DNA of 62,978 nucleotides, filler included, from Stramenopiles sp. TOSAG23-6 (lineage: Eukaryota), in the NCBI GenBank assembly GCA_900128565.1. It is 13 parts of 13 records of this genome, joined end to end, with 100 filler letters (N's around TTAATTAATTAA, not from the genome) between each part and the next. Parts side by side here need not be neighbours in the genome. Positions count along the whole stretch, not along the records: positions 13,073 to 19,507 come from LT636701.1; 12 more parts are not named here. One strand, 5' to 3'. Numbering within the stretch: position 1 is the stretch's first letter; every line of letters begins with the position of its first letter. Below, one piece after another: positions 2-62,049 of this stretch. Both the position numbers and the translations under genes were made by a program. Below the pieces are notes generated by a model. The model saw only the letters and a list, made by a program, of their open reading frames with translations, searched no databases and had not been told where the DNA came from.

Positions 2-1504
2 GAATATGTAGCAAATGAAGCTTCGGGAAAACACATTGTACGACGGCTAGAAAAAAATAAGAAGAATACAAATACATTGAAGAAGAAAGACAACAAGAGT
101 AAGGTTCGGGTAGAGCATAAAAATGGTAATGTGAAAACAAATCTTGATCACAGTTTCATATCTGGAGTTGAGGTTGAACGCAGTGACATCACTAACTGTA
201 TTCAGCATATAAATAGGGCAACTGATGATTGGAAATTTAAAATTGAGCAGATACAAAAGTTGACACATTTTGTGAAGCGAAGTGAAGAACATCCAGAATT
301 GTGGACAAAAAAAATATTAGTTCGTGTTATCAGTCCTTTACTAATTTCACAAGTACGCGATCTACGTTCAACTGTAGTACGCGCCACATGTGATTTGATA
401 AATGCAATTATGGAAATTCTAAAGGCAAAAGCACGATTTATACTTCGAGAACTGTTTCCAGTAATATTTGATATTGTAGGGAGTGGTAACTCTGTAATTG
501 CGGACTATGCGCGAAATTCGTGTGTTTCTGTAGTAAAGCATGTACATGCTACAATAACATTACTCTGCATTTCAAATATGGCAACATCATCTAAAAATTG
601 TTCAATTCGTCTTCAAGCGATAGAATTATTTCATATTGTAATTAATACATGGGAATATTCAAAGATCAATTCTCAGGCACAACTTTTACAAAATACATTA
701 CAGGTAGCACTTGATGACGTATCTGGTGAAGTTCGTAAAAAAGCAAGACGATATTTTGTAAAGTACAGCAATCTTTTCCCTCAAAGAGCTGATAATATAT
801 GTACGTTTTATATGAATTTCTAATTTAATTTTTTTTCATACGGAATTTCGTACCTAACGATTTTAATTTTTGAAATATGTTTTCATAATATATGCCGCAT
901 GGTCACAGGTCGCACTGCGAGATTACTAGATAAAATGAGTATAAAATCTTTACAATTAGGCTTAAAAGATGACAAATTTCCTCCAAACATTCCAAATAAT
1001 AATTTACTTGAGCCTCCTAAGCGTCTTTTAGCTTCAAAAAATAATGATCTTGAATGTAGTGAGAAGACTTCAAGTAAAGATAAAAATCTTTCAATAAAAG
1101 GTGAAACATTTACTGACAAAAATGGATATAAAAAGAATAATTCAATAAAAGGTGAAACATTTACTGACAAAAATGGATATAAAAAGAATAGTTCAAGTTC
1201 GATTAATTTTATCCGACGACTTGGAAAACAAATACAAATTGCACACAAATTACATATTGAAGATATGATTTGTTCACTAGGTAAAGAATTGAAACTTATG
1301 GAGGATTTTGAGGAAAAAATGAAGATGGAAGGAGAAAATTTCATTGACGGAGAAAAAAAAATACATGGCGATGTTGTTGCATATGCAATTGAAATGACAA
1401 AACGCTTAGAAACACGTCAAATGATGAATGAAATTTCCGGCAATGCGTTGAGGAAGCTAGCTTCGGAAACAATACGATTGGGAACAACTTCATCATCTTT
1501 ATAA
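2..1504 (+). CDS. CLASP/TOG (HEAT-repeat) domain protein, 5'-partial; exons 2-800, 894-1504
   Basis: DLRSTVVRATC, RLQAIELF and ALDDVSGEVRKKAR are CLASP_N-like motifs; frame open to the window start; intron 801-893 joins ADNI-C-RMVTG in frame. Confidence 0.7.
801..893 (+). mobile_element. Repeat-family intron, GT...AT
   Basis: GTACGTTTT start, TTTCGTACCTAAC core, TTTCATAATATAT end; AATATATG present at both junctions; removal restores frame. Confidence 0.8.
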
Positions 1505-1626
1505 TGGAAACTTTATAAAATGGCTTTAACCACAAGTACAAGGTTTCAATTTTTGAAATGAAAAATAAAATTTAAATATTTTTTTTGATACGAAATTCCG
1601 TACCTAACATTTTTTTTGTCTACTTT

Positions 1627-2375
1627 TTATTTATGTTTCCGTCGAGAATAACCATTCAGTGGAGCTTTATCTATATAGTTGAGTCGCAGAGCTTCAGATA
1701 GGTGCGAAGAAAATAGGCCTTTTTGTCTAGCATGTACTGTGAAGAAATTATAGAAAACAGAAAATTCGTTAAGTACGCAATTTCCTATGAAAAAAAAAGA
1801 TTTGAAATGAAAGATGAAAAGTGAAATTTTTTTTTTTTAATTTGTTAGGTACGGAATTTCGTACTAAAAAAAAACTAAATTCGAAAAATTGAAAAAAATA
1901 AACGTACATGTATTTTCAGTAATTTCTTTTCTTCCTCCGAAACTAAATGTCCAGAATACGCCAAGTCTTCTTGCATTGCCGTTTTGTGTGGATCTGATCC
2001 TCGAAGAATGAAGAGCGAATTTGCCATATTTGTGGAGGACATTCCATGCGGTACTCCTGACACTGTTTTACGTGTTTGCTGAGCGAGGTTTTTTCGTTTA
2101 TTGTATATGTCACGAGATCTATGTTTTATATAATATTTCCCCCTTTTTTTTTTATTCTTTTTTGTCATTGATAACTTTGCTTTTATTTCTTCCAGTTCTG
2201 CAGTTAGTTGGTTGCGTCTAATGTTTAACTCATCCACATCAACAACTTTTTGTCTTGTATCCTCCACATCAAAAATCTTCTGGTTGTCCGCCATGGGCGG
2301 CTCACCTGGACTATCTGATTTATGTTCTATTTCATGGGGATATGCTCCATGTACACGCTGTGGGTGTAAAAACAT
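1627..2375 (-). CDS. Hypothetical protein; exons 2375-1908, 1731-1627
   Basis: ORF ends in intron-family sequence; removing 1907-1732 (GT...AT) gives LKIH-ARQKGL...HK*. Confidence 0.55.
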
Positions 2376-2795
2376 AATACCTTTGAGAGTGTACTGTTGG
2401 GTTGGTCTAAGTTAAAATCAAAATCTTTGGATGATCACAGATCAGATCTTCAAACAAAATGTAAGACAATTCGGATTCTCTCAAACCTCTCAAACGTTTG
2501 ACTACTGGATTTTTATGACCGTTTCATCCTTTTCAGTTNCTTTTTTTTTTNCTTTTTTTTTTTCAGACTGAGTCTCCGACGACCTCACATACAATTATCA
2601 ATCTTAAGTCTTGACTTGTGTGTTTTGCATCAACGAAAGAGACGACACATTCTTAAACTAAAAGAATATTCACAAGTCTATTAGGACCTATACATATATA
2701 TATACAGAATCTGGAACTTTGAACGGTTCTACCACTTATTAAAGTGTTATAGAATAAAGTTAACTTCAGAACCCTAACCCTAAACATATAGTAGA

Positions 2796-3038
2796 ATGTC
2801 TAGCGACTCTAGTCAGAAAAGTATCTTAAATGCTGAAAGTCTTGAGGCCCTGAACAAGCAAGTTGAAGAAATGCAAACATCAGATAAAGAGTGGATACAC
2901 TACCACCCTGACTTGGAAAAAGTTATATCTTTATTTGTCAAAAACGTCCTGAGAGAGCAGCCGGAAAACATCAAAGATTTTGCAGTCGAATTTTTCACGA
3001 GTGAGAATCTAAAGAGCATGGTCAAGAATTCTCCTTAA
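2796..3038 (+). CDS. RIIa/DPY-30 docking domain protein (RIIAD1-like)
   Basis: HPDLEKVISLFVKNVLREQPENIKDFAVEFF matches the RIIa D/D pattern. Confidence 0.7.
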   Translation: MSSDSSQKSILNAESLEALNKQVEEMQTSDKEWIHYHPDLEKVISLFVKNVLREQPENIKDFAVEFFTSENLKSMVKNSP

Positions 3039-3183
3039 ATATTTTTGAAATAAATTCTTTTAGATACCTATGGATTCTTTTATATACCTTGTTACATTTT
3101 TATTACTTTCTCATTAAGAATTCTCATACTATTTCTACGGATTTCTACGAGACACCCCAGGGTTATACTATTTCTACGAGACA

Positions 3184-3226
3184 CCCTAAACCCTAACCCT
3201 AACCCCTAACCCTAGTACCCTAACCC
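3184..3226. repeat. Interstitial telomere-type (CCCTAA)n tract
   Basis: ccctaaaccctaaccctaaccctaaccctag...ccctaaccc. Confidence 0.85.
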
Positions 3227-3499
3227 AAACAATACAAAAATTGGGAAAAATAAAAAAACAATACAAAAATTGGGAAAAATAAAAAAAAATTGATATAAAT
3301 ATGGAAGTAATGAACTAATGAATACAAATGAAAAATTTTTAATCTACACTTGAGAAAATACAAAATTACTAGTAGTATAAAAAACAGTGGGTATAGAGAA
3401 CATTTCAAGGTTTTTTTTTTTATTGTTACGTGTCTTTATCTGTACACTGTGAGATTCCGTACCATTTTTTTGTATTTAAACGTGAAACACTACTTCTTA

Positions 3500-3877
3500 T
3501 CAACTCCAGGCTGACATTGTTTCGTGTTTATAGCCCTTCCCAATGGTGTTCGATGTCTCGGCGATTTTTTGCCCTGTAGGTTCTGTTTCCAAAACGTCAG
3601 GGGGTCCTGAGCCTCCTGTCGAAGTTGTTCTTTTTTTCCATTTCGGAGCGTCAGATTCCACCGAGTCAAAATTGTGATTTGATTTTCTCATTATCATTAT
3701 GATTACTACATTCCACAATGTTGAGAATACTAAAGTTGAAAATATAATTGCTAAAGAAGTTATTACTGGGCAATACTGTGTCCCGCACGATCCACTTTCG
3801 AAGTCACTCTTTTTTATGGCCATTTGTATCAACTCTCGAAGTCTAATTTCTTTCTCTTCGTTTGAGCACGTCGACAT
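3500..3877 (-). CDS. Small single-pass membrane protein, unknown
   Basis: 125 aa ORF with one hydrophobic segment. Confidence 0.45.
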   Translation of the reverse strand: MSTCSNEEKEIRLRELIQMAIKKSDFESGSCGTQYCPVITSLAIIFSTLVFSTLWNVVIIMIMRKSNHNFDSVESDAPKWKKRTTSTGGSGPPDVLETEPTGQKIAETSNTIGKGYKHETMSAWS

Positions 3878-6631: not shown

Positions 6632-8992
6632 AATTTTATGAAATTGGTGAAATAATGAAAATGTACAAATGTGCTTAAAAATGAATCACATAAATCTAAT
6701 GTTGTAGAGGATGATGAACACAATGATGTTAATAATTCAATGATTGTGCCAACAGTGCTACTTGGCCATTTATATGACAAGTCAATTGGATTATGAATGT
6801 GTTCCTATATTTGTAGAAAATATTTCAAAATTTAAAAAAATATTTTGTTAGGTACAAAATTTACTACGAAAAAAAAAATGAAAAAAAAATGAAAAAAAAA
6901 TTCCAAAATTTTTTTTAAACAAAAGATAAAAAAAGATAAAAAAAATATTCTTATTACAACACGTACCAACATTTTTGGTGTCATATGCCGGGGACACAAA
7001 ACTGTTTTCATAATTGAATATAAAATGTTTTGAACTCTTTCATCACTTTTTTCAATTTTTTCACTTTTTTCAATTTTTTCAATTTTTTCAATTTTTTCTT
7101 GATGTTGTCGACAAAATCGAACATGAATTATTTTTTCACGCCCATTACCGGGTATCAGCTGGTCAGGCACATTTTCTATAGTAAAACCTAGTAAAGATGC
7201 AATTTCTCTACTTATAGTAGGGTCATACGGTAATGTTTCAATAAGCATGTATTTTGGAAAAATATTTCAAAAAAAATCTAAAAAATTTCGTTAGGTACAA
7301 AATTTCGTACGAAAAAAAAAATTCGATTTTTTTGTAAAAAAAATAAAAAAATAAAAAAATAAAACATACATACTATCAAGACAATCAGCAACAGATAAAA
7401 TTTGTTCGGTAAAAATAAAAGGTTGAAATTGTTTTTTTTTTTTTTTTGAAATTTTTTTTTCTTCTTCTTTTGAAATTTTCGTTTTTTTTGGACTTTCTTG
7501 ATTAGGATTAGGGTTAGGGTTTTTTAATGCAGGTATGCATTTCATTACTAAATTCCACATCCCTACATAATCAATGACATTACTTGTATCAATAGCATGA
7601 TATCCATTACTTCCAGGTTGTTTTAAAGGAATTTCCATACAATGGTAAAAAAATATTTGAAAAAAAAATTCAGAATTTTTGTTAGGTACGAAATTTTTTT
7701 ACGAGATTTTTTTTACGAAAAAAAAAAAAAAAAAAAAAATGTAGGATAAAAAAATACATGCAATTACCAAATGTAAAAAAACAGCGTATTGTATTGTTTT
7801 TGACAGATTTTTGTAGACGAATAAATAATGGTGTCCAAACATTTTGAAGCGTTTTCGCAAATGAAGGTGAACCCACCATATTATCGATTGCATTGCTTGT
7901 ATTGGTTGTAGTAGAGTTAGGGTTAGGGTTAGGGTTAGGGTCGTCGAAAATTTCGTCACTAGTTAGTGATGCAAAAGCGCCAACAGGCCCTTGACATTCT
8001 AAATATATGGCATGCTGTTTGATCCCATCGATATCATCATTCGATATTTCAAAATTTTCAAAATTACATGTAGAAAGTATTGTGAAAAAATATTTCAAAA
8101 TTTACTATAAAAAAAAAATTTGTTAGGTATGAAATTTTTTTACGAAATTTTTTTACGAAAAAAAAAAATTTAAATTTGAAATTTAAATTTGAAATTCATA
8201 TAAAACGTACAACATCAAATAGAGTTGGGTTTATATACGTCACTGTAGTGTTTGTGAGGGAAGAGTCAACGGAGGAAACCCCATGTTTAAGCCAATCTAC
8301 AAGAAGATGTGATAAACGTCCATGACCTGCACTTTGGTCTGAGAGTCTTTTTGCACGTACATAAATTATGAAAAAATATTTCGAAAAAAAAAATCTAAAA
8401 AAAATTGTTAGGTACAAAATTTCGTACGAAAAAAAAAATCAAAAAAAAAAAATTCAAAATTGAAATGAAAACGAACTTGTAATAATTTTTTTGTGTTTGT
8501 TTGTACAGATTTCAAAGATAAAATCGTACGCCATGCAATCCAATGTTGTTTCATAGCACTTAATGTCTTTTTATCTGTTCGAATCCATGAAGGGATTTGT
8601 TCAATTAATTGACACAAGGTTTTAAAAAGTTGAGAAAAAGTTTCTTCATTGAGCAAGACATCACTCCAAATAGCTGTTGCATATTGTATACTCAACTCTC
8701 CTTCAGATGCCAAGGTGATCAGTACCACATTTCGTGCAAGGGCAATCGAATTTAAGTCATTGAAATGTAGTTCAACTCGTGCTTCTGATGGAATATTTAT
8801 CAAAGTGGTGAGAGGGTTTCGTATATCACCAACTCCAATCCAAAGCAATTTGATGGGTGTTGCGTTACATAAACTTTGTACTTCTTCTTTTGTTAGCAAG
8901 CTGCGAGCAAATGTATTTCCAATAAGAAAGCCACTCATCACACTATCGACAAGCTTACGTCGTGCAAGACTAAATGGTTTAGAGTACACCAT
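6632..8992 (-). CDS. DUF4470-like domain protein, 3'-partial; introns 8476-8361, 8210-8075, 7757-7637, 7369-7247, 6966-6805, next starts 6631
   Basis: LLWIGVGDIRN, HFNDLN..ARN and DTSNVIDYVG motifs; five family introns fuse the ORF fragments in frame. Confidence 0.65.
8075..8210 (-). mobile_element. Repeat-family intron, GT...TT with TT duplicated at the 5' flank
   Basis: GAT GTT|GTACGTTTT...CACAATACTT|TCT ACA; in frame. Confidence 0.7.
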
Positions 8993-13339: not shown

Positions 13340-13537
13340 ACAAAAAAAAAAATTGAAATATTATTTCCAACCCATCTACATTTTCAAACACCTTTCGAAT
13401 TGTCACAATATGTCATAATAGATCCTCAATGGCTAATAAATATGACAACATGTGTCATCCGAGATTTTAATATACACGAAAAACGAAAAGATAAAAAAGC
13501 ACGAAAAATGTATTTTATTATAAAATGAATTTCATTG

Positions 13538-13570
<33 letters not shown>

Positions 13571-15451
13571 TACCAAAATTTTGTACCTAACAAAAAAAAA
13601 ATTCATTCATTTTGAATAAAAAATATTTTTTCACAATAAATGTTGACACTATGGAAAGATCTTTGTCAATTTGGGATTTTAGATCAAAGATTATTACATT
13701 TTTTATGGAATGAATATGATGAAAAAGTCCGCTCATTTATGTTGGATTTATTGTATGTTTTTTTTTTTTTTTAATTTTGTTTTTTTCGTACGAAATTTTG
13801 TACCTAACAAAAAAAAAAAAAAAAAAAAATTGAAATATTTTTTCACAAAATAAACATCATTTTGGTTTAGTTTGTCGCATTGATGTGAATGAAATGAAAT
13901 ATTTACTTCCTTCCATCGCTTTACGGAACAGACCTGTACAGGAAAAGAAAACACCAAATGTCCAAAATTTTGAAAAAAATATTGAAAAAAATTTTGAAAA
14001 AAATATTGAAAAAAATATTGAAAAAAATATTGAAAAAAATATTGAAAAAATTTCCTATACATTTCGTATACAATTTCAATCATCACAAAATCAAATTTGT
14101 TTACCTCCTGGATTTTTTGAGAGATTAATTGCTGGCGTTGTCCGTCGTTCACATGAAAGTTGCTGTATGTTTTCATTTCAATTTCGAATTTTTTTTTTCG
14201 TACGAAATTTTGTACCTAACAAAAAATTTTAGATTTTTTTTTGAAATATTTTTCAAAAATACATGGGGACGTAGCCAAAAGCCTATATTTGGTGACAGGT
14301 TTGTCCAAATAAGTTTTGGTGAGAATTCGTTTGAGATTGCTCCTGTTTATATTGAAAACATTTCAATTTTGAATGTATTAGGTATGGAATTTCATAGTGA
14401 AAATTCTCAACATGTTGTTGCAAGTATTTGTGTGGCAGTATTGACAGGTTCGTTCCAAAAGATTATTGATGAAATTCTTTATATTGCAGTAGATATATAT
14501 GTTTTATTTTTTTTCAATTTTTTGTCTAAATTTTTTTTTTGTAGGAAATTTTGTACCTAACAAATTTTCAAAATTTTTTTTTGAAATATTTTTACAAAAT
14601 ATATTGATGCTTCCTTTTTTAGTGGTTGTCTTGAACCATGTTTGTTTGTATTATTCAGTTTTTTTTTTTAGTTTTGTACCTAACAAAAATGTTAAAAAAA
14701 AAATTATTTATTTTTGTCAAAAAAAAAAAAATTTTTTTTTTATAGTAAATTTTGTACCTAACAATTTTTTTAGATTTTTTTTTGAAATATTTTCTCATTC
14801 TATATTTGCAATTTTAGAATTACGTAATCAAAAATGTACTATTAATAATACAATATATAGTCCATCTAACCCTAACCCTAACTCAATGAAAGGATTTAAT
14901 GCAAGACATCCTCAATGTAATGTCATTGCTGAAATAAATGCAAAATCTGCTGAATTTGATTTAAATTGTCAAAAAAAAAAATTTTGGTGTTGGGACAAAC
15001 CTGCTGGTGTTGAAAAATTATATGATGGTGTTTTATTTACACATTGGTTACTTGAGGAAGATTCTACTACTACTAACCCTAACCCTAGTAATTTTACTAC
15101 TACTACTAATAATAATAATAATAATAATAATAATTCTAATGATATTGATACTACTAACCCTAACCCTAGAGAATGTAAAGACAAAAATATTTTTTCTAAT
15201 GAACCGGGTATCTCGGAGTTATTTTCATTAGGGTTTTTATTTCATTCAAAAAAAACGCCATTTTATAGAGTCAAAAAAATATCTCAATCATTATTAGGAA
15301 AAGGAGCTTTTGGTAAAACATATTGTGTATCAAAATTAAACAATTCTACTACTATTGATACTACTACTACTAATAACAATAATACTAACACTAATACTAA
15401 TAATAATAATAATAATATTGATGATGATAATATTGATATTACTATTACTAA

Positions 15452-15489
<38 letters not shown>

Positions 15490-15578
15490 CTACTATTACT
15501 ACTACTACTAATAATAATAATAATACTAATAATAATGATAATATTGATATTACTACTACTACTACTACTAATAATAAC

Positions 15579-15610
<32 letters not shown>

Positions 15611-17302
15611 TGACGTCATTTTCTATCAAAACAACAGTACTACACGAAATCTCCAAAAGCTTAAAAAGGACAATATTCATAATGACGTCATTCTATATGC
15701 GATGAAAATTGTTGATATTTCACTTTTATCTAAACAAAATGGCGCATCTATAAAAAATCTTCACAAAGAAATTCAAATACTTCAAACATTGTATGTTTAA
15801 AAAAAGTGAATTTCAATTTTTTTTTTGTAGTAAATTTTGTACCTAAGAAAAAAAAAAAAAAAATTATAGAAAATTAACAAATTTCAAATGTAAAATATTT
15901 TGTTACAAATACATACAACATAAAAATATTGTCCAATTATATGACGCATTTTGGTGCTCCTCTGGTTTCATTGTACAACACACGAAAAACCTACAAAATA
16001 GTACAAAACAAATTTATAATTCTTGTTTGTTTCCATCAATTATTTCAATTTTTTTTTTTTTCATAGTAAATTTTGTACCTAACGTTTTTTTTTTTTTTTT
16101 TTGTGAAATATTTTCCCTAAAATTTATTATGTTTACAAATGGAACTTTGCGATATGACTTTGCTTCAATTGATTAATAATGGACAATATAAAGGTATACC
16201 AGTGGTACCAAATATTACAAAAATGTTTTTAATTCAAATTGTTGATGCATTGGCGTGGGTTTTATTTATTTATATTTTTTTTTTAAATTTATATTTTTTT
16301 TTTAAATTTTTTTTTTTAAATTTTTAAATTTTTTTTTAAAATTTTTTTTTTCAAAAACTTAAAATATAATTCTATCTTCAATATCACTACACAATATATA
16401 TATATGCATGCCAATGATATAATACATCGTGATATTAAATTAGATAATATTATGATTGTCAATTCGGAAACTATAAAAATTTGTGATTTTGGTCTCGCAA
16501 CTAAAATTTACCCTTTAAATAAAAATGTGAAAAATATAAATGATGATACACTTGATATGAAAACTTTACAATGTCAAAGAGGTCATATTTGTTATCGAAG
16601 TCCTGAAAATATAATGTTTGTTTTCATCACTCATTTAAAAAAAAAAAAAATGATGAATTTTTTTTTTTTTTTATTATTTTTTTTTAATTATTTTATTAAC
16701 TTAAAATTTATCGTCAATACATATATATATTTTTTTTTGAATTATTTCATGTCAACTTAATGTATCATTAATGTTGTAAGATATATGTTTTTACTGTACA
16801 TGGGGTTTACACTTGACTATGGTGATGATATCTGGGCTTTAGGGTTGTACGTTTTGTAAAAAAAACAAAAAACATTTTGTAGTAAATTTTGTACCTAACG
16901 ATATTTTGTACACTAAAAAAAAAAAATATTTTTTCACAAAATTGAATTATTGTTGAGTTATTGACAGGTATGACAATTGTTCACAGAATACGTCGTAACA
17001 CGAAATATCAAGATAAATTTAATCCTGGTTGTTGTTACCCAGCGGTTAGAAATACAATTTTATTACAAGATTTAATAAATGAGGTAAATGAAATTGTTAC
17101 AACAGTACAAATCGATAACCCTAACCCTAGGAGTACTACAGGAGTACAAATTGATAACCCTAACCCTAGGAGTACTACAGGAGTACCAATCGATAACCCT
17201 AACCCTAATGTTTCAATGTTATCAAATTTTGTACAGTATTGTTTAAATATAGATGCAAAAAAGAGATGGAATGCTAAAAAATTATTAGAAATATTGAAAT
17301 AA
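13340..17302 (+). CDS. COR-like plus Ser/Thr kinase (Roco-like) protein, 5'-partial (start approximate), 10 reconstructed introns
   Basis: VIIDPQWL and LPPGFFERLI (COR-like); LGKGAFG, YAMK, LQHKNIV, HRDIKLDN, DFG, SPE, DIWALG; introns 13510-13641, 13753-13853, 14165-14264, 14497-14604, 14640-14805, 15791-15914, 16025-16127, 16255-16399, 16616-16801, 16847-16944. Confidence 0.75.
15340..15610 (+). repeat. (AAT)n/(ACT)n low-complexity tract encoding poly-N/T
   Basis: Seen directly; lies between the kinase Gly-loop and the YAMK lysine. Confidence 0.9.
15791..15914 (+). mobile_element. Repeat-family intron, GT...AT
   Basis: ACA TT|GTATG...AAATACAT|A CAA CAT gives the conserved kinase L-x-H-x-N-I-V. 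Confidence 0.85.
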
Positions 17303-19643: not shown

Positions 19644-22600
19644 TTAACTAAGATCAAATCCTGATTTTGATGTAATAACGTATAATAGTTTGTTTTTCAT
19701 TACTTTTGAAGAACTATAGTTTGGTAACTTCAGTACATTAAAACAAGTCGAAGCTGTTGGCAATCTTTCATTATCACTACGAATGGTCACACAGCGTACA
19801 CAAAATTTTGGTTCCAGTGATTGAAACCCTAACCTCGGTGGGCTTGACGATGACGTCACAAATTTCAAGAGAAGACATTTTTCTTGATGACTCATTAGGG
19901 TTAGGGTTTTCCAAAATCGACGCATGAAAGGACCATTTGTCAATGCACCTTCTACTTTTGTGTATTTACGTAAATCTTCAACATCAACTGGAGTAGCATC
20001 TCCAGAAATAAGAATTTGAAGTTCTGGCTCGGAAAACATAAATTTTGGAAAAATATTCCAAAAAAAATCTAAAAAAATTTGTTAGGTACAAAATTTACTA
20101 TGAAAAAAATTCAATTTTTTTGTTAAAAAAAAAAATAAAACATACATTTTTAACCATTCAGAGTTGATAATTTGATAAAGTCCTCGCTTGAAAGCTGACA
20201 CTTGTTTTGCAGTTCTCTGATTCAGATGATAATTTGCTAATAAATATGTATACTTGAAACGATTATTTTCATGTACTTCAACACTAGACCCTCCAGGAAA
20301 AAGCTCAATTGTTCTATTTTCACCCATGGCGCAATCTGTCACGGTAAAATCCAAGCATAAATCAGAAACATTTTCCTTCATGTTTTTCAAAAAAATTAAA
20401 TTTTTGAACAATTCTTTGTCTAGAATGTATTGTGAAAAAATATTTTTTTTGTAAAATTTGTTAGGTACAAAATTTCTTACGAAAACCAAAAAAAAAAAAT
20501 TCGATTTTTTTGTAAAAATAAAATAAAACATATGTGACCAAATCATCTAAATAATTTTCCTTTCCTAGTAATTTTCTTAGAAAATGTCTTGCAAACCGCG
20601 GTTGAACAACTAAATTTTCATATAGTGCCTTGCCTAAAATTTGTCCAAGAAATTCAAAATTATCCTCTGTATTTTCACCAATTGCTTTTTCTGAATCAGG
20701 ATTTGGATAAAGCAAACCATCATCTGTTAATTTGAATAAACCATAGAATGGATCAAATGCTACTTCTGAAATTGAATTCCAGAGTTCTTTAAACAATCCT
20801 CCTAGGTCTTGTCCTTTTTCTTGTATACCATTTGATGCTATAAAAGTAACTGATATACGCTTTCGAATGTTTTTTTTCAATAAGAACAATTCTCGAAAAG
20901 AATCAGCAAATATAGAATCCCGTCTCACTAAAATACGCTTATAGGGTTGGGCATTTTTTGGTTGATGATGAGTTTTATCTTTCAATATTTTTGATTCAAA
21001 AATTTTAATTCTTTCTTCAAATGAAACCAAATAAGAACAATCCCGTAAAACTTGATCAAATAGTTTTGAATCATTTCTTACCATTGATAGTATATTGTTG
21101 TCAGCAAGCCATTCACTCCTTTTGCATATTGGTTGTCGCCCATTTCTTTCATATAAATTTTGCATTAGACAACATATACATTGTAAAAGATATTTTGGAA
21201 ATTGATTTTTTTCATTTTGTGTTTTGTTGCTAAATAGTCTTCTGCAGTTTTGTTTTGGTTCAAAATCAGAGAAAAATAATGGTTTTGAATTCATTTGTTT
21301 TACATTTGTTGTACCCAAGTATAAACGTAACAATAATTTCTTCAGTATAGCGATGATTCGGATGATTTCATGAAGATGCAAAGGTTTTCCTTTTTCGTGT
21401 AATTCTACATCATCAACAACAAGTAAAAGATGTGACAGGCACTGACAAAATATCGCCAAAGCTTGACAAATATCGAGATTACTATGAAAATTCTTTGAAC
21501 TATATTGTGGATGATATTCATTAATTGAGGATTCAAACTCATCAGTACTATCCATAAACAACCATAGCACTTGTGGAAATGGTGTTGAAAAGGAAAGAGT
21601 GTTTAATAAAGCACTTTTATCACCAGCTGTTGTGACATCAGCTTGGAGTTGTCGATTCCACATAGTACAGATAGAAAAAATTGCACATTTTCTTTTTATA
21701 CTTATTCTTGTTTTTTTCATTACACTCGGAAATTTTATGTTTTTTGCTGTAGATGTTGCAAGCTTGTAGGATAGAGACGTCGTATTTGTGAGAGGTCCCT
21801 GTTTTATTATTGATGTTGGTCTCGATGACAATGTCTTACTATGTAATAGAGTTTTTGCCCATTTAGCAGTAGATTGCATAAATTCCCATGCAGATGTTTT
21901 TTTTTTCAAAGTACGAGCAGTAAGAGGTTCCATCATGATAGATTTATTAATTTCGAATTTTGTTTTTGTTTCAATATCATCAATAATTCCAGTATCCGCC
22001 GATTTCATAGCATCAACTTCAAGTTGAAATAAAGCAGTGACAATTTGTCGTACGTTTTGTTCACATGACAGTAAGGATAATTGTTTTACTAATACTGGTG
22101 GTAAACTAATAATTTTCATAACATGTAAAGTATTCAAATGTATTCGTGGTTCGCTACCTAACAAAGATAGTGGCATTTTCAATGATATTAAACTTATTGT
22201 TGTCACATAATCAAAAATTACATTTGTTTTTGCAATATTTGCGTTTCTACATAAAAAATGTACTCGTAACAAATTTCCTAAGAGATATATTTGACAAAAT
22301 ATTTCAAAAAAAAAATCTAAATTTTTTTGTTAGGTACGAAATTTCGTATGAAAATGTTTTTTTGGAAATAAATTAGAAATTCAAATAAAACGTACATAGA
22401 GTAAGGAACCTCCTTTATCAAGGGATGGTAGAAAAAATGGATTTGATGGTGAAATCTCCTCAACTAAAGAAAGTGTAGATGGTTGAATACTATATTTCAT
22501 CAAACACGACCATATAGAAATATTTTCAATTTGTGGCTTAGGGTTAGGGTTATTTTGATGGCTATTTTTGTTTGAAACTATATTTTGGTCATTTTGGTAT

Positions 22601-42410: not shown

Positions 42411-45285
42411 ATGGAAGCTTTAGACGCCGCATTCCCCACCATTGGTGAAGCCATGCCTTCAAATGTCACCACATTTGATGATAATGGTAAGAAGAAAAAG
42501 AAAAAGAAGAAGGATGCTTATGGCTTTGCAGCATTTGGTTTGTGCAAAAATGTCTTTGGTGCAATTAGGCGCATTGGATATAAACAACCCACACCCATAC
42601 AAAGAGCGGCTTTACCTCCAGCGTTGTCTGGTGCAGATATTGTTGCCATGGCTAGAACTGGTTCAGGTAAGACTGCTGCATTTATTATTCCTATCATAGA
42701 GCGTCTTCAAGTGCATAATAAACGCATGGGCTGTCGAGCAGTACTGATATCTCCAACTCGTGAGCTCGCTACTCAAACGCTTAAATTTGCACGGGATCTT
42801 TCTAAGTTTACCAACCTTCGTTTGTGTCTTCTTGTTGGTGGTGAAAGTATTGATCGACAGCTGGATGTCTTATCAGCAAATCCTGATATTATTATTGCTA
42901 CTCCTGGTCGAATCACACATTTATTAGAAGAAGTCAAAAGTTTTTCTTTAAATGCCGTTCAAGTTTTAGTCTTTGATGAAGCCGATCGTCTATTTGAGAT
43001 GGGGTTTCGTGATCAATTAAATGATATTCTCAAGGCAACACCAGACTCAAGACAAACTATGCTCTTTTCTGCAACAATGCCAAAAATGTTGGTTGAATTC
43101 ACACGTGCAGGATTACAAGATCCATCCTTCATTCGATTAGATACTGAGTCTCAAGTGAGTCCCAACTTACGAATGAATTTTGTGACAGTGCGCCCTTCAG
43201 AAAAACCAGCAGCTTTATTGCATATCTGTGCAGAGATTATTGGTCCAGCACAGCAAACAATTATTTTTGTGTCTACGAAGTATCATGTGGAATTTATCAC
43301 TGAACTTTTGAAAAGTGCTGGTCATCTTTGTGCCTGTGTCTATGGTGCACTCGACCCGATGTGCCGTAAAGCAAATATTGCAAAATTTCGTGCTGCTAGG
43401 GCACAATTTTTAATTGTGACAGACGTAGCCGCTCGTGGTATTGATATTCCAATGCTTGATAATGTCATTAATTATGATTTTCCAGCTAAGCCAAAGTTAT
43501 TTGTACGTTTTCATTATGAATATCAATTTTTTTTTTCGTACGAAATGTTGTACCTAACAAATTTCGAATTTTTTTTTTTTTACAATACATGTGCATCGTG
43601 TTGGTCGTGCTGCTCGTCAGCATCGGAATGGTAGTGCTATTTCAATGGTAACTCCCGAGGACCTGCCATATATGCTCGACCTCATGCTTTTTCTTGGCAA
43701 GAAGCCAGATAATGGAGATGGTAGAGGTCCTAAATTTACATTAATAGCCGATGGTGGTGATACAACTGCTATTGAAAAAAATGACTCTATGAAGAAGAAA
43801 ACGATCTGCAAGCCTGAAAAGTATTCTCTATCTACGCAGCAACCTGATGAATTACACTATGGTGGACTACCTCGATTTCTATTAGATAGTTCTGTTGAAG
43901 CATATGAAAGTTATAAAAATTCAAGTGTAGCAATACAAGAGACCGAGAGAGTGGCTCTAAATGGATATAAGGCTTATATCCGGACACGTCCTCCAGCGTC
44001 CAAGACATCTCAGCATAGATGTAAAGAACTGCATCCTATTCTAGTACATCCTCTTTTCCGAGAAGCAGCGGAACTTTCAGGTAGCAACGCTACCGCTGAA
44101 ATATTTGCTAGTAAACTTTCTAATTACAGGCCTTCTATGACTGTGATGGAAGTACAAAATTTGAAATCTGGCAAAGGTGTTTTGGATGTTTTGAGAGCTA
44201 AGCGAATTGCACACCAGCGCCATATATATACAGTCCGTACTACCGAAAAGAAGAAGCATTCAGAATGGTTATCTGCCGGTGGGTATGAAAATGATACAAA
44301 TGATAAGCAAATGATCAAAACTGAAACTGTTTCAGGTGGAAAACGAAAGCAAAACCAGTGTAATGATATCAGTGGTTCAGATACAATTGAAATATATAAA
44401 AAACATAAAACAAATAAAATAGCAAAATGTCAAGCAAAAATTCCAAAGCGAAAGTTATCGAAAGCGGAGAGAAAACGAATGAAAAAACAACGATTAAATC
44501 CGGCGATATCAAACGCGGTCAATATAAACATCAATACAGATGATAATACAAATAACACTACAAACAATAATACAAAAACTCCATTAAGTTTCCGTGATAA
44601 TTCAGTGTTTATTAATGTACGCCAATCGGATAGCGAGGTAGCAAGTAGTCGTGGTCTTTCAATACGAGATAATGTCAATGGTGATACAGCTATAGCTGCT
44701 AGGCAACATATGCAAGAAGCTGTGCTCGATCTGATGCCCGATGAAGTGTCAAAATTAGGTGAACAGAGACGATTCTTCTGGGATAAGAAGAAAAGAAAAT
44801 ATGTAAAAACGTCATTAAATGACATAAAGGCTAATAAAAATAGAGTCAAAACTGAAAGTGGTAAAATGGCTAAAAAGGAAGTTGGTAAGATTTATGAACA
44901 ATGGTGTAAAAAGAATAAACGAAGCATTCTATCCATCGGGGAGGAAGAAGGTGGTGGTACTGCTGCAAGTACTATAGCCTTTGAAGCGCAAGGTATGGAT
45001 TTAAAAACAATGCGAAGAAAAGGTTTATCTCGTGGCGCAATCCGGGAGAAAGAGAAGAAATCAAAGGCAGCTACTTCTGGTGGCGAATTGTATAGCGCAG
45101 AAACGATTCGAAAACAACGCAAAGAAAAAGAGAAAAGAAGAGCTAAAAATGGCCGAGGGCGTGGTGGTCGTGGTCGAAGTAGAGGTAGAGGAAGTGGTGG
45201 ACGTGGTGGTAAAAAGATTCCAGGATTTGGGCAAGGTAGAGGTTCCAAATTTGGCAAGGCGGGATCAAAAAAGCGACGACGTTAA
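42411..45285 (+). CDS. DDX54: DEAD-box RNA helicase DDX54/Dbp10; exons 42411-43502, 43591-45285
   Basis: MARTGSGKT, PTRELA, DEADRLFEMGF, SAT, HRVGRAAR, C-terminal WDKKKRKY...KTESG. Confidence 0.92.
43503..43590 (+). mobile_element. Repeat-family intron, GT...AT, just before helicase motif VI
   Basis: TTA TTT|GTACGTTTT...TACCTAAC...ACAATACAT|GTG CAT CGT gives KLFVHRVGR; the 88-nt intron contains no AG. Confidence 0.9.
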
Positions 45286-46450: not shown

Positions 46451-49400
46451 TTAATATAATAGCATTCCACCAAGACCAAATTTGATCGTAGTACTTAACC
46501 GAGATCTCATCATAGACAGCGAAGTGTACGCAGGTAATTCTAATGTAAAGAAACAAGTGTGTGATATAGGTAACGAAGAAAGACTGCCTTCCATTCTTGT
46601 AATTGTCAAGTGATGTGACCAAGTGCCACGTGGTAATCTATTTCTACCCCAAGCAAATCGAATAAATCTGCTTCGTTCCTCATCGTCCCAATCATTCATT
46701 ACTTGCCAGAAGAATTTTATTGTAGGATCATTGTGCTTATATCCACGATACTCGGTATGTTGCTGAAGGATACTCACAGACACTTCCTCTCGGCCACAAC
46801 ATAATTCCTCTAGTTCTCTTGAAGTAAATAAACGTAGTAATCTACCTGGGACAATAGTAAACAATCCTCGACGAATGGCAAGAATTTGTATATTAAGTAT
46901 TGTGAAAAAATATTTTTTTTTACGAAAAAATAAATCGTTAGGTACGGAATGTAGAACGAAAAAACAAATTTAGGTAAACAATTCAATTTTGAAAACATAC
47001 AAATTCTTTCATTCGTGTTTTTTCTGCAAGTTCAAGATATCGTTGGCGTTGCTGCCACGAAACCTGAACGTCCCGACCACCATCATATAATTGAGATTCT
47101 GATCCATTTGCCAGAGTAACTACAAAACGTAAATCGCCAAAATCATCTTTGAAGTCAGATTCAATTTCACTCACAAGATCAGCAGCTTTTATCACTTTCT
47201 CCTGGGCCTCTTCAGAATGTCCAGACAATTTCAATGTTTTTGCTTCTTTGTTTAATCTACGAATTAAATCTTCATCATCTTCTCTATATTCCTTTGAAGC
47301 CTTTAAAAATGTCACAAAAACTTCATCAATTCCTGATAAATCGCGTGTCTCGATGTCTTCATCAAGAATCGCTTTCCATATTACAGGAGGAAAACAGAAG
47401 GGAAGGCTTGCCTTTGTTCTCAAAGAAATTCCTAATAATTTACCAATGAATTCAAACATACGTATATGTTTCGGTGATGCAGCTGCCGCATTTGGAACAT
47501 ACGCATCTTGATTTTGACCTATCTTTTGGACCCCATTTGGGCATAGAATTAACAAGTTCAAGTCATTCGAAAATAAGTCTTCGACCATTTGAGTGATTGC
47601 TTCCCTATATGGTCCTCCAGCATCCACAGCACGTTCACCAGCAAATTTTACGCTGAATACATGTTCATGATGCCGTAATTGACTTGGAGGGCGTTTGTGT
47701 AATTGGCGAAATGCTTGAGTAAATAAGCAATTAGACAGTGTGGCTTCAGTCACACCATCTTCCTTGGACTTGATTGCTTTCTGACGATCTAAGCGAAGTG
47801 ATACGCTAACACTGCTTGTAGTTGATTTCAAACCACTCACTAACAAACTAGATTTGACATCCGCAAAAACAAGATATGCTAAACTACGCAAAAGAAAACC
47901 AAAACTCCATTCACACTCAACCTTTGTAAGATCAATTAAATGTACCACATTTGATAATAATTTGTTAAAATTCAATATTATAGAAAAACGAGTCGCGATA
48001 TCTTGAGTATTTTTATTTGCCAAGCGTTGAAATTTCATTTTGTCTTTTATCGAGATTTGAGATAATTGCTGGGGTGAAGCATGAATTGTGAAAAAAAAAA
48101 TTCTAGTAAAAAAATCGTTAGGTACGAATTTTCATTGTAAAAAAAAATCGAAATCCTATTTTGAAAACGTACATGAAGTGACATATGCCTGTAGTGATCC
48201 TGAGGAAATCTTTTCCCCTGACAAGCTGACTGTTGTTCGACAATATTATTATGCATTCGAACTAATTCTGCATCATCTTCAAAAGTCCAATTTTTGGGTA
48301 ACGAATTAATGGAATTAATGAGGCTATCGCGAGCTTTACTCGAATTTCTTTCCTTTTTCAATAATAAATTCATTATTTTCTTTGCCGGACGTCTGGTATT
48401 GGAAGGATTTGAACTTACTTTCATCAATTGTCTCATGAATTTATTTAATTTTGCCGCGCGAATGTTTGCCGCAAAACCCCATAGTGAATCAGTGTTTTTA
48501 TCACCTCCGTCAATTGTGACAATCAGAACCTCACCTTTCATTTTCATAGTTTCCTCTATAATAAGTTTATCTGTTCTAATAAAACTATGATTTGATAATT
48601 CAAGTGTCTCTTTTCGTTTTGTTATTACGCGTTTTGTATCCGCTACAGACCATGATACTTCAACACCTGACATTTTCATGTCTTTTGTATACGGAAGATT
48701 TTGTAAAATATCACGACAATCCGGAGAAATATCTTCATTCTTGCATTTTTCCAAATATGCTTCGGCCTCTTTTTCAGTTTTGAAACGAAAATATTTTGAA
48801 GTAGAGTCATTTTTTATTTTACTAATTATCTTGCTAGATGATCGAAAAACCCCAATTTTCCTACCCTGTGTTATAGCATACCAAGAACCTTTTGAAGCAG
48901 AAATACTCTTTTTTTCTGTAGAGATCTTATCCGTTGTATCCTTATTTTGTGTTGATTCTGTGTTTTTCTCAATGTTTTTATTCGTTTTACAACTATTTGG
49001 ATTTTTAGGATTTTTAGGATTACTCATTGCACTTTTTTTAGAAGGATCGATTATTTCGCATTTGAATGATTGAAGAATTAGAGTTGCGTCCGGTGTAATC
49101 CTTGATCTAAGATCGAAATCTATTTCCATAGAATCACCACCTGCCACATGTATTTTGGAAAAATATTTCAAATGTTTTTCGTTAGGTACAAAATTCGTTA
49201 GGTACAAAATTTCGTACGAAAAATAAATTCGAAATTGTAAAAAAAGTAAAACATACATGAGCATAATGAAACTGAATTCGATCTTTTGAACCTATTTTTC
49301 CAGAAGAATGAGGATGTACAGATTGCATAAACCCACCGCCTCTCATTTCAAGTGCAGCCGCATAAACAAAAGATTCTTGAAAATTTTTCGTCTTTTTCGT

Positions 49401-59646: not shown

Positions 59647-59868
59647 NNNNNNNNNNNNNNNNNNNNNNNNNNNNNNNNNNNNNNNNNNNNTTAATTAATT
59701 AANNNNNNNNNNNNNNNNNNNNNNNNNNNNNNNNNNNNNNNNNNNNTAACTACAAGAACTACAAAAGTATATTATTCTTAATAATGTGTTTTCATTACAT
59801 ATGAAAGATCAATATTAAGCAGTGGTAGTATATACACAAAAGAAGTGAAATCTCCATTTTCATTGTGG

Positions 59869-60609
59869 ATGGAAGACGAGGAGTCACAAATAGACGAAAT
59901 ATCTGCAATTTCTGCAATATTTGGACAACAAAATGTGAACATTGTACAAAATACACCTCCACGTAGTATTATTATTACTATTGAGTCCCCTTTTGATTCT
60001 TGTCAACTATGTTTATCTCTTGAAATGATCTTACCGACAAATTATCCATCTCGTGAAGCACCAATTTGTAGTGTTTCCGTAGTGTCAGGATGTCATGACT
60101 CATCACTTGTATCGTTTGCCCATACTGCTCCGGAACAATTATTCAAGTTATTTGAACCAGGATCAGTCGCTATGTTTGATTATTGTACATATTTAAGAGA
60201 CAATTGGCCATCAATAAAAGTCAGTAAAAAGAATTTCAATCCAATAAATCCAATAAATCCAATAAGCAGCAACAACACTGAAATCGAGTTCTCATTAGAA
60301 ACAAAAGCTAATCCGAACGCTAACCCAAAATATCCAAAATGTACAAGTAAAACACACACTGCCATGGATTCACATTATAATAATGATAATAATGATAATA
60401 ATGGTAATGATATGGCTAATGGCTTTGAAAAAATAAAAAATAGTCAATCACAAAAATCAAAAAAAAAATGGAATTTTTTTTCTGGTCAAATTGTGAAAGT
60501 AAAAAAAAGTAAATTTCAAGCTCACTGTGTTAAAGTCAATTCATGTGATGATGTGAAAAATGCAATGGATAGTTTATTGAGTCATAAAAAAATATCACGT
60601 GCAACACAT
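59869..60609 (+). CDS. IMPACT/Yih1 (RWD + UPF0029), 3'-partial
   Basis: EISAISAIF and LPTNYPS (RWD); KKSKFQAH...KISRATH; family intron starts at 60610. Confidence 0.85.
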
Positions 60610-60979
60610 GTATGTTTTTTTTTTTTTTTTATGAATTTTTTTTCGTACGTAATTTCGTACCTAACAAATTTTAACACATTTTTTTTTTTTTTTTTTTTTT
60701 TTGTATGAATTTTTTTTCGTACGTAATTTTGTACCTAACAAATTTTAGTTTTTTTTTNNNNNNNNNNNNNNNNNNNNNNNNNNNNNNNNNNNNNNNNNNN
60801 NTTAATTAATTAANNNNNNNNNNNNNNNNNNNNNNNNNNNNNNNNNNNNNNNNNNNNTAACTACAAGAACTACAAAAGTATATTATTCTTAATAATGTGT
60901 TTTCATTACATATGAAAGATCAATATTAAGCAGTGGTAGTATATACACAAAAGAAGTGAAATCTCCATTTTCATTGTGG

Positions 60980-61720
60980 ATGGAAGACGAGGAGTCACAA
61001 ATAGACGAAATATCTGCAATTTCTGCAATATTTGGACAACAAAATGTGAACATTGTACAAAATACACCTCCACGTAGTATTATTATTACTATTGAGTCCC
61101 CTTTTGATTCTTGTCAACTATGTTTATCTCTTGAAATGATCTTACCGACAAATTATCCATCTCGTGAAGCACCAATTTGTAGTGTTTCCGTAGTGTCAGG
61201 ATGTCATGACTCATCACTTGTATCGTTTGCCCATACTGCTCCGGAACAATTATTCAAGTTATTTGAACCAGGATCAGTCGCTATGTTTGATTATTGTACA
61301 TATTTAAGAGACAATTGGCCATCAATAAAAGTCAGTAAAAAGAATTTCAATCCAATAAATCCAATAAATCCAATAAGCAGCAACAACACTGAAATCGAGT
61401 TCTCATTAGAAACAAAAGCTAATCCGAACGCTAACCCAAAATATCCAAAATGTACAAGTAAAACACACACTGCCATGGATTCACATTATAATAATGATAA
61501 TAATGATAATAATGGTAATGATATGGCTAATGGCTTTGAAAAAATAAAAAATAGTCAATCACAAAAATCAAAAAAAAAATGGAATTTTTTTTCTGGTCAA
61601 ATTGTGAAAGTAAAAAAAAGTAAATTTCAAGCTCACTGTGTTAAAGTCAATTCATGTGATGATGTGAAAAATGCAATGGATAGTTTATTGAGTCATAAAA
61701 AAATATCACGTGCAACACAT
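60980..61720 (+). CDS. Identical duplicate of the IMPACT contig (likely redundant contig)
   Basis: 60858-61868 appears identical to 59747-60757. Confidence 0.7.
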
Positions 61721-62049
61721 GTATGTTTTTTTTTTTTTTTTATGAATTTTTTTTCGTACGTAATTTCGTACCTAACAAATTTTAACACATTTTTTTTTTT
61801 TTTTTTTTTTTTTGTATGAATTTTTTTTCGTACGTAATTTTGTACCTAACAAATTTTAGTTTTTTTTTNNNNNNNNNNNNNNNNNNNNNNNNNNNNNNNN
61901 NNNNNNNNNNNNTTAATTAATTAANNNNNNNNNNNNNNNNNNNNNNNNNNNNNNNNNNNNNNNNNNNNTTTTTTTTTTTTTTTTTTTTTGGTTTTTATAA
62001 AAATTTTGTACCTAACAAATTTCCAATTTAATTTTTTTTACAATACATG

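Follow-up and report, generated by a model that had tools for sequence, protein, structure and literature searches.

The AG acceptor is among the most conserved gene signals of eukaryotes, held in place by U2AF35 and by the active site of the second splicing step. A kinase gene of Stramenopiles sp. TOSAG23-6 raises the question of how a 3′ splice junction is placed where that signal is missing, as two of its introns appear to end in TG and AA. An earlier note on this DNA had proposed that such acceptors are measured from an upstream motif or fixed by pairing of the intron ends, rather than found by scanning for a dinucleotide. We examined this proposal in the window, a stretch of 62,978 nucleotides in which separate contigs are joined by N spacers (both introns lie on contig G000:C1628), together with further stretches of the same genome. 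The sequence analysed comes to 809,277 bases (~0.8 Mb), some of it duplicated and de-duplicated by flank, and all splice junctions were inferred from the DNA sequence. The nearest named relative of the eRF3 encoded in the window is a protein labelled GSMAST32 (86% identity), a label that we take to denote a MAST-3 stramenopile.

Two Introns with Unusual Ends in a Kinase Gene

The coordinates and sequences of the two flagged introns (Table 1) had been given correctly, and each intron ends 7 nt after a TTTCAC. The first, of 98 nt, runs GTACG...TTTTTTCACAAAATTG, and the second, of 101 nt, runs GTATG...TTTTTTCACAAAATAA. With the proposed junctions, the kinase motifs of the host gene are intact. 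Its N-terminal part, which we take to resemble a Roco COR domain, gave no match in Pfam, PDB, Atlas, or the fetched proteins, and the last kinase exon, used as a protein query for the spliced form, returned nothing that scored. The first bases of the contig (13073-13180) nearly repeat positions 13540-13640, from the 3′ half of intron 13510-13641.

For the first intron, the claim that the kinase consensus forces a TG end at 16944 held when scored against a profile of 262 subdomain-IX motifs from 150 kinases (168 with a Glu within 8 residues after the Gly and 94 without). This junction scores 23.0 bits versus 9.9 for the AT at 16947, and other intron ends between 16935 and 16959 score at most 12.9 bits. 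The Gly-to-Glu gap is four residues in 167 of the 168 motifs with a nearby Glu and three residues in 1, and three intronless kinases of the same genome keep the four-residue spacing. A stop codon appears if either flagged intron is slid back by 1 nt, and also at 2 nt back for the intron at 16847.

The second intron is constrained differently. From −6 to +9 nt around 13853, the in-frame ends are CA, AA, AA, CA, CA, and TT. Neither AT nor AG occurs in frame within 9 nt, so the intron must end in some other dinucleotide, provided that the donor is right. This much of the earlier claim stands. The peptide LDLLHHFGL, offered as proof of the AA end, does not carry that weight, as no homolog was found for this segment that fixes the residue count of the junction, and AA at 13853 is preferred to a site 3 nt away purely for its position.

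Table 1. Introns and intron elements considered here. Positions count along the window unless a contig is named; a slash marks a splice junction.
Feature	Position	Strand	Remarks
Host gene	13382..17302	+	open frame of about 870-890 codons, 10 introns, C-terminal Ser/Thr kinase; 5′ start not fixed
Flagged intron, GT...TG	16847..16944	+	phase 2, kinase subdomain IX (DIWALG/LIIVEL)
Donor region of flagged intron	16844..16854	+	GTT/GTACGTTT; the altered 5′ end of U1 is complementary to intron +1 to +8 and to the T at exon −1
Branch-point box of flagged intron	16890..16899	+	TGTACCTAAC; presumed branch A 16898, inferred from CTAAC
3′ box (−21 to −4) predicting the junction	16924..16941	+	includes AATAT/, a decoy in frame with the junction and 15 nt before it
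Alternative in-frame AT	16946..16947	+	3 nt downstream; use would remove one kinase-helix residue
Second flagged intron, GT...AA	13753..13853	+	phase 2; branch A 13807; 3′ box register same as in 16847-16944
Family intron of host gene, GT...AT	13510..13641	+	
Family intron, GT...AT	14165..14264	+	exon ends CT; stop on sliding by −2
Family intron with AT donor, AT...AT	14497..14604	+	
Family intron with two branch boxes	14640..14805	+	AT end picked among in-frame options by box register
Family intron, GT...AT	15791..15914	+	LQTL/QHKNIV
Family intron, GTTTGT donor	16025..16127	+	end 16127 (AT) or 16124 (TT), both in frame
Degenerate intron without clear branch box	16257..16401	+	boundaries uncertain by a few bases
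Degenerate family intron, GT...AT	16616..16801	+	weak branch box; SPENI/MGF
HECT gene intron, GT...TT, a parallel case	46895..47000	-	in-frame AT 3 nt downstream; TT end collinear with HECTD3
DDX54 intron, GT...AT	43503..43590	+	rules out the AT-AC register (F, not Y, before VHR)
Intron, GT...TT	8075..8210	-	end copies exon end TT
Canonical intron, FKBP gene	L035:2397-2496 (G000:C3)		
Canonical intron, CDP-alcohol transferase-like gene	L056:4631 on (C10)		
Canonical intron, unknown gene	L066:8182 on (C13)		

A Majority Class of Introns with Eight Different Ends

The flagged introns belong to a family of short introns (median 102 nt) that make up the majority of introns in this genome. To collect this family, 447 branch-like boxes were reduced to 257 with a donor and clean, unique sequence, and these to 192 with confident reading frames on both sides. 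Junctions were called from positions −24 to −4 with a profile that takes no account of the final three intron bases; its training introns were 84 members of this set that end in AT. Of the 192 introns, 147 scored high enough on this profile and 45 fell below the level needed for a call, which under-counts looser introns. Calls were judged by reading frame, a test that fixes a junction only modulo 3; 139 were in frame, and removal by eye of five mis-assigned cases left 134 curated introns.

The curated introns end in AT (105), TT (11), GT (6), AG (4), AC (3), AA (2), CT (2), and TG (1). Their donors follow the profile GTAYGTTTT. Eight of the 134 start with AT instead (ATATGT; for example 14497-14604 on the plus strand and 20425-20533 on the minus strand); these end in AT in five cases and otherwise in CT, TT, and AC, so no A–C terminal rule applies.

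The assembly shows some peculiarities of its own. Two identical 1,011-base contigs occur in the window (59785-60708 and 60896-61819), and contigs C2 and C4 hold long inverted duplicates, as expected from amplification chimeras. Short telomere-like (TAACCC)n runs lie inside many exons of the window, for example at 14870-14885 and 17120-17210, where they encode NPNP repeats.

Placement of the 3′ Junction

The −24 to −4 profile predicted an in-frame junction in 139 of 147 introns overall and in 33 of 34 with a predicted non-AT end, compared to one third expected by chance. Positions −12 to −4 alone gave 99/107 in frame and positions −24 to −13 alone 104/135, indicating that most of the information sits where the U-tract ends and in the AATA after it. 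Individual motifs of the box keep their distance closely. In a set of 93 introns whose junctions were taken as in-frame TAYAT only, TTTCAC stands 7 nt before the junction in 26/26 introns that have it (67 do not), and the start of AATATT lies 20 nt away in 60, 19 nt in 9, 21 nt in 3, and 32 nt in 1 (20 are without it). The distance from branch point to junction spans 32-61 nt, while the box distance holds within one base; the ruler is therefore the 3′ box, and the branch point was rejected in this role. Scanning models were rejected as well: the first AG and the first YAT give the correct junction in only 3/134 and 5/134 introns, respectively, and the first AG is in frame in 43/134, which is chance level.

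A potential competitor, AATAT/, lies exactly 15 nt upstream of the junction in 105/134 introns and, being in frame, is invisible to the frame test. Homology indicates that it is skipped. Among about 70 junctions, 10 were usable for comparison with Pfam (same-family matches close on both sides); 8 of these show exact collinearity, 2 differ by one residue, and none differs by five. The junctions of DDX54, the kinase, and the HECT gene likewise skip the decoy. In DDX54, all 116 matched homologs keep a seven-residue spacing, and Phe occupies the junction in 115 of them; 4 of the 120 homologs were unmatched. The upstream match of the HECT gene to HECTD3 is weak (E 0.22).

An acceptor located at a fixed distance from an upstream box, and not found by scanning, is thus supported, in agreement with the measured spacing proposed in the earlier note. 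The companion claim, that no dinucleotide is sought, fares well against first-AG and first-YAT scanning and less well if it is taken to mean a sequence-blind end: besides the excess of AT, the last intron base is T in 124/134, and position −3 is a pyrimidine in 136/139. A different reading of this preference, which we consider unlikely, is that the box only opens a short window in which the spliceosome takes the best YAU-like site, with introns that have rare ends such as TG and AA spliced inefficiently, or in part at an AT close by, to an extent that the genes tolerate. The predominance of AT is consistent with such local choice, as are an in-frame AT within 9 nt of 11 of the 29 curated non-AT ends (including 16947) and a box distance that is off by 1 nt in 12/73 introns. 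The other 18 non-AT ends have no in-frame AT that close, however, the kinase and HECT spacings favor the non-AT end over the AT 3 nt further on, and the upstream decoy is skipped in every case tested by homology.

A Changed U1 in a Probable U2-Type Spliceosome

The sole U1 found begins AAACGUACAUG. Its 5′ end, AAACGUACAUGG, differs from the consensus AUACUUACCUGG by U2A, U5G, and C9A, and all three changes are complementary to the donor CAU/GUAYGUUU: A2 faces U at +7, G5 faces C or U at +4, and A9 faces U at exon −1. Family donors form a computed duplex averaging −9.25 kcal/mol with this U1 and −1.71 kcal/mol with the Rfam consensus. Since a GTAYGT-like pattern served to select donors, there is some circularity in the match at +1 to +8. 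The T at exon −1, seen in 119/134 introns, played no part in this selection, which used intron bases only, and C9A explains it.

The branch-pairing region of U2 (GUAGUA), loop 1 of U5, and the ACAGAGA of U6 are unchanged. The family introns share with U2-type introns a computed complementarity to U1 and U6 in the canonical register and a CCTAAC box that faces an unchanged U2; they depart from them in the YAG acceptor, with AG in 4/134. A search of the incomplete assembly gave no match to U12 snRNA, and the RTATCCT donor motif is absent. Genes for U5, U2, U1, and U4 snRNA lie head to tail within 640 bases (L023:9-645, G000:C1146), and a second copy of this cluster, on C6122, matches it over the first 664 bases and differs from there on.

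A few canonical AG/GTAAGT...YAG introns persist, such as CAG/GTAAGT...TTAACAG in an FKBP gene; a relaxed scan returned 29 candidates, most of them spurious by eye, so that only three to four are counted. They share contigs with family introns and pair poorly with the changed U1 (−2 to −3 kcal/mol). A DNA search for a second, canonical U1 found only two identical copies with the changed 5′ end, and an Rfam search scored 41 of 253 candidates. One pattern-search hit was at chance level and was rejected as not being U1.

Prp8 (L028, G000:C84) has no introns in its main frame and closely resembles the human protein, and the segment around what we take to be the α-finger differs only by KW to RF. 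Two patches otherwise conserved with human Prp8 are altered, from MASGST to MTAGQA and from TDFKQYQVLKQN to KHFRQYIQYRTD. There is one clear gene for a U2AF large-subunit-like protein. The zinc fingers of the small subunit read AG according to the available passages of PMC7505975. None of the 15 zf-CCCH matches inspected is this subunit (U2AF35), in an assembly whose incompleteness means that absence is not implied. A degenerate-motif hit was dropped, as it lies out of frame inside another gene.

A Duplicated Target Site and a Probable Mobile Origin

In 41 introns, the preceding exon does not end in AT. The intron end is then identical to the exon end in 15 cases (2.1 expected), complementary to it in 1 (1.3 expected), and AT in 17; none of 20,000 shuffles reached 15 copied ends. 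Among 139 introns, the intron matches the last exon bases at −2 in 118 (93.4 shuffled) and at −1 in 119 (110.9 shuffled), and the match at −3 is not above shuffle. Copying of the exon dinucleotide at these unusual ends is what a 2-bp target duplication would leave, and we read it as the signature of one. The apparent insertion target is symmetric, with exon −3 composed of A29 C56 G18 T31 and the complement of +1 composed of A28 C62 G12 T32. Both flagged introns break the copy rule, since the preceding exon ends in TT and the introns end in TG and AA. A TT copy that drifted after insertion is the best reading of both ends.

The copies bear on whether the changed U1 might read both ends of the intron. 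ACAUG would then pair with CAU/G at the donor and with YAU/G at the acceptor, C9A having turned AG into AT at both; for fission yeast, Reich and co-workers reportedly described pairing of U1 with the 3′ site in 1992. The two junctions do share (C)AT/G (intron −3 is C in 101 and exon +1 is G in 64 of 139), and C9A is present. A single U1 cannot account for locus-specific copies such as TT/TT, GT/GT, and AA/AA, however, and a palindromic target site yields the same consensus. We therefore regard such dual reading as quite improbable, and it does not exclude the target-duplication explanation that we prefer.

Pairing between the intron ends, the second option of the earlier note, is a still poorer candidate and appears highly improbable. 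GUAU would pair with AUAC plus flanks, and the junction would be read off the stem as in euglenid nonconventional introns. G+1 does face C or T at −3 in 123/134 introns, T+2 faces A or G in 127, and T stands opposite A+3 in 113; the fold of intron 14165 brings its two ends into pairing, and the TT/...AA of intron 13753 is complementary. Exon and intron ends nonetheless covary by identity and not by complementarity, so end pairing is not supported, and C at +4 faces A in 39 introns and G in 4. Neither flagged intron folds with paired ends, and the branch box and U1 match indicate a spliceosome; the combination that marks euglenid nonconventional introns, end pairing without spliceosomal signals, was not found.

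The family introns resemble one another, with a mean pair identity of 0.71 versus 0.59 when shuffled (low complexity inflates both values) and a nearest-neighbor identity of 0.65-0.94. Relative to their host genes, 213 of 257 lie in sense orientation, 34 are unclear, and 10 are antisense, most of the latter not being real elements by eye. At 76 of 80 distant DDX54 loci the sequence reads through the intron site; these loci are 53-63% identical, and some may be transcripts. Terminal inverted repeats measure only 4 bp, short of the 6 nt or more looked for in an introner, and there is no covariation at +4/−6. In the available parts of the introner survey, many introner families are without terminal inverted repeats, and a locus-specific match of the flanks is used to call target duplications. 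Two overlapping palindromes, TTTCGTACGAAA and GTACGAAATTTYGTAC, occur 21 bases before the branch A of family introns and fold as a hairpin just upstream of the branch box. The branch-box motif had 0 matches in the JGI metagenome contigs searched, a set that possibly leaves out near-identical genomes.

A Proposed Route for Splicing

We think it likely that a transposon-derived intron family, a changed U1, and a box-placed acceptor together account for these observations, the positional part alone being somewhat firmer than the whole. The flagged intron would be one copy of a family descended from a mobile element with ends GTAY...ATAC, which, on inserting, would duplicate 2 bp of its target, in most cases a palindromic YATR. 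Removal of the element together with one duplicate would fall to the major (U2) spliceosome. In a first step, the observed U1 with U2A, U5G, and C9A would pair with CAU/GUAYGUUU; the unchanged U2 and U6 would then read the CCUAAC branch box and GUAYGU. In a third step, the 3′ box of the element itself (U-tract, C, AAUA; −21 to −4) would set the junction; the probable agent is a protein, such as the U2AF large subunit, that sits on the box at a set distance. This step would prefer YAU and tolerate TT, GT, AG, AC, AA, CT, and TG. As the acceptor would be whatever two bases were duplicated, a dinucleotide-tolerant second step would let the element be harmless. The changed U1 and the AG-less introns suggest a splicing machine that may have adapted to an invading mobile intron.

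A bolder version, which we advance tentatively and do not ourselves favor, is that the transposon invasion remodeled the U2 spliceosome to serve two intron classes, each with its own donor reader. The changed U1, altered even at the position facing exon −1, would serve the transposon-derived majority class, whose acceptor would be placed by the box without an AG check and possibly without the U2AF small subunit. The remaining AG/GUAAGU...YAG introns would depend on another, canonical U1 or on a route that needs little U1.

It seems very improbable that the TG and AA ends come from misassembly or from mutation in a pseudogene. The data come from a single assembly with homopolymers and with chimeric and duplicated contigs, and TG occurs once and AA twice in 134; the gene is nevertheless open across 10 introns with its kinase motifs intact, the 29 non-AT ends are spread over many genes, and an error at the two flagged sites would leave the general rule untouched. 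We give next to no credence to the minor spliceosome or to a register moved by 2 nt (AT...AC) or 1 nt (TG...CA). Because most exons end in AT, the alternatives GT...AT, TG...CA, and AT...AC often yield the same mRNA (both ends are AT in 88/134), but among 51 junctions with a non-AT exon or intron end stops number 0 in the GT register, 3 at −1, and 4 at −2, the DDX54 homologs need Phe at the junction, which excludes the −2 register, and U1 pairs in the canonical GT register with donors lacking a U12 motif, in an incomplete assembly that yielded no U12.

If the combined explanation is right, a natural genome holds introns by the thousand (scaled up from the ~190 in 0.8 Mb) with eight different end dinucleotides at a fixed position. 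With its unchanged U2, U5, and U6 and nearly unchanged Prp8, it would readily allow tests of the determinants of the 3′ junction, and also of whether U1 and donor sites co-evolve after intron invasion. Gene finders built on GT–AG will mis-splice most intron-containing genes of this lineage.

Related Systems

A close parallel comes from Fritillaria, a chordate, whereas the present organism is a stramenopile. In the available text on F. borealis and F. pellucida (PMC13326754), most introns escape GT–AG, AT is the commonest 3′ end, bases upstream of the donor (there a triplet) recur at the intron end, the spliceosome is U2-type, and a transposon origin is proposed, all as here. The same text describes donors that are mostly AG, a strictly preserved U1 5′ end, and a duplicated U2AF. 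Here, in contrast, GT is kept in a yeast-like GTAYGT, the branch box is strong, only 2 nt are repeated, and U1 carries three changes.

Chrysochromulina-type introners, as described in the accessible portions of bioRxiv 2022.06.06.494994, PMC11282704, and PMC12130899, are likewise repeated short introns with a locus-specific match of the flanks, in which the element brings the 5′ site and the acceptor comes from the target duplication. There the duplication supplies AG, with 3′ sites in AG and AC; here eight dinucleotides occur, with AG in 4/134. For MAST stramenopiles, the mostly open-access literature searched reports neither non-AG introns nor a changed U1, and the available parts of two MAST genome papers mention no splice-site anomaly.

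A U1 that matches an atypical donor has precedents in Entamoeba (AACAAAC) and Mastigamoeba (ACGUAC), and U5G and U2A each have a counterpart in these U1 sequences, according to the available passages of bioRxiv 2022.06.08.495308. The changes there face +3, +4, and +7, whereas C9A here also faces exon −1, going from AG to AT. Those passages describe neither non-AG acceptors nor a transposon-derived majority class.

Acceptors set by an upstream motif are also documented. In the portions available for Giardia (PMC10711314), a fused branch–acceptor motif places the acceptor at a fixed distance from a short upstream motif; AG is normally kept and the ruler is the branch point, while here the box is separate and the branch distance varies by 30 nt. 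In C. elegans, the UUUUCAG motif bound by worm U2AF sets the acceptor, with AG normally kept and rare non-AG sites, as far as the available part of PMC4484395 describes.

Among transposons, ISL2EU elements also make a 2-bp AT duplication at a palindromic site, and the accessible text (PMC4482050) gives an A/AT/T target and inverted repeats of 6-259 bp starting with GG. The present family instead prefers C-AT-G and has 4-bp GTAT/ATAC ends, and a search with one transposase family found no matching transposase. A Harbinger-like element was considered as an autonomous partner in that one-family search and rejected, having other ends and a TAA duplication. This intact-looking Harbinger-type element (L110, ~500-3610, on G000:C2432) encodes a transposase and a convergent second ORF. 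Its inverted ends of ~26 bp start with GGCC and are flanked by TAA on both sides, and the locus is present on four contigs. Downstream of the transposase, the element on C2432 has a fragment of the family branch box.
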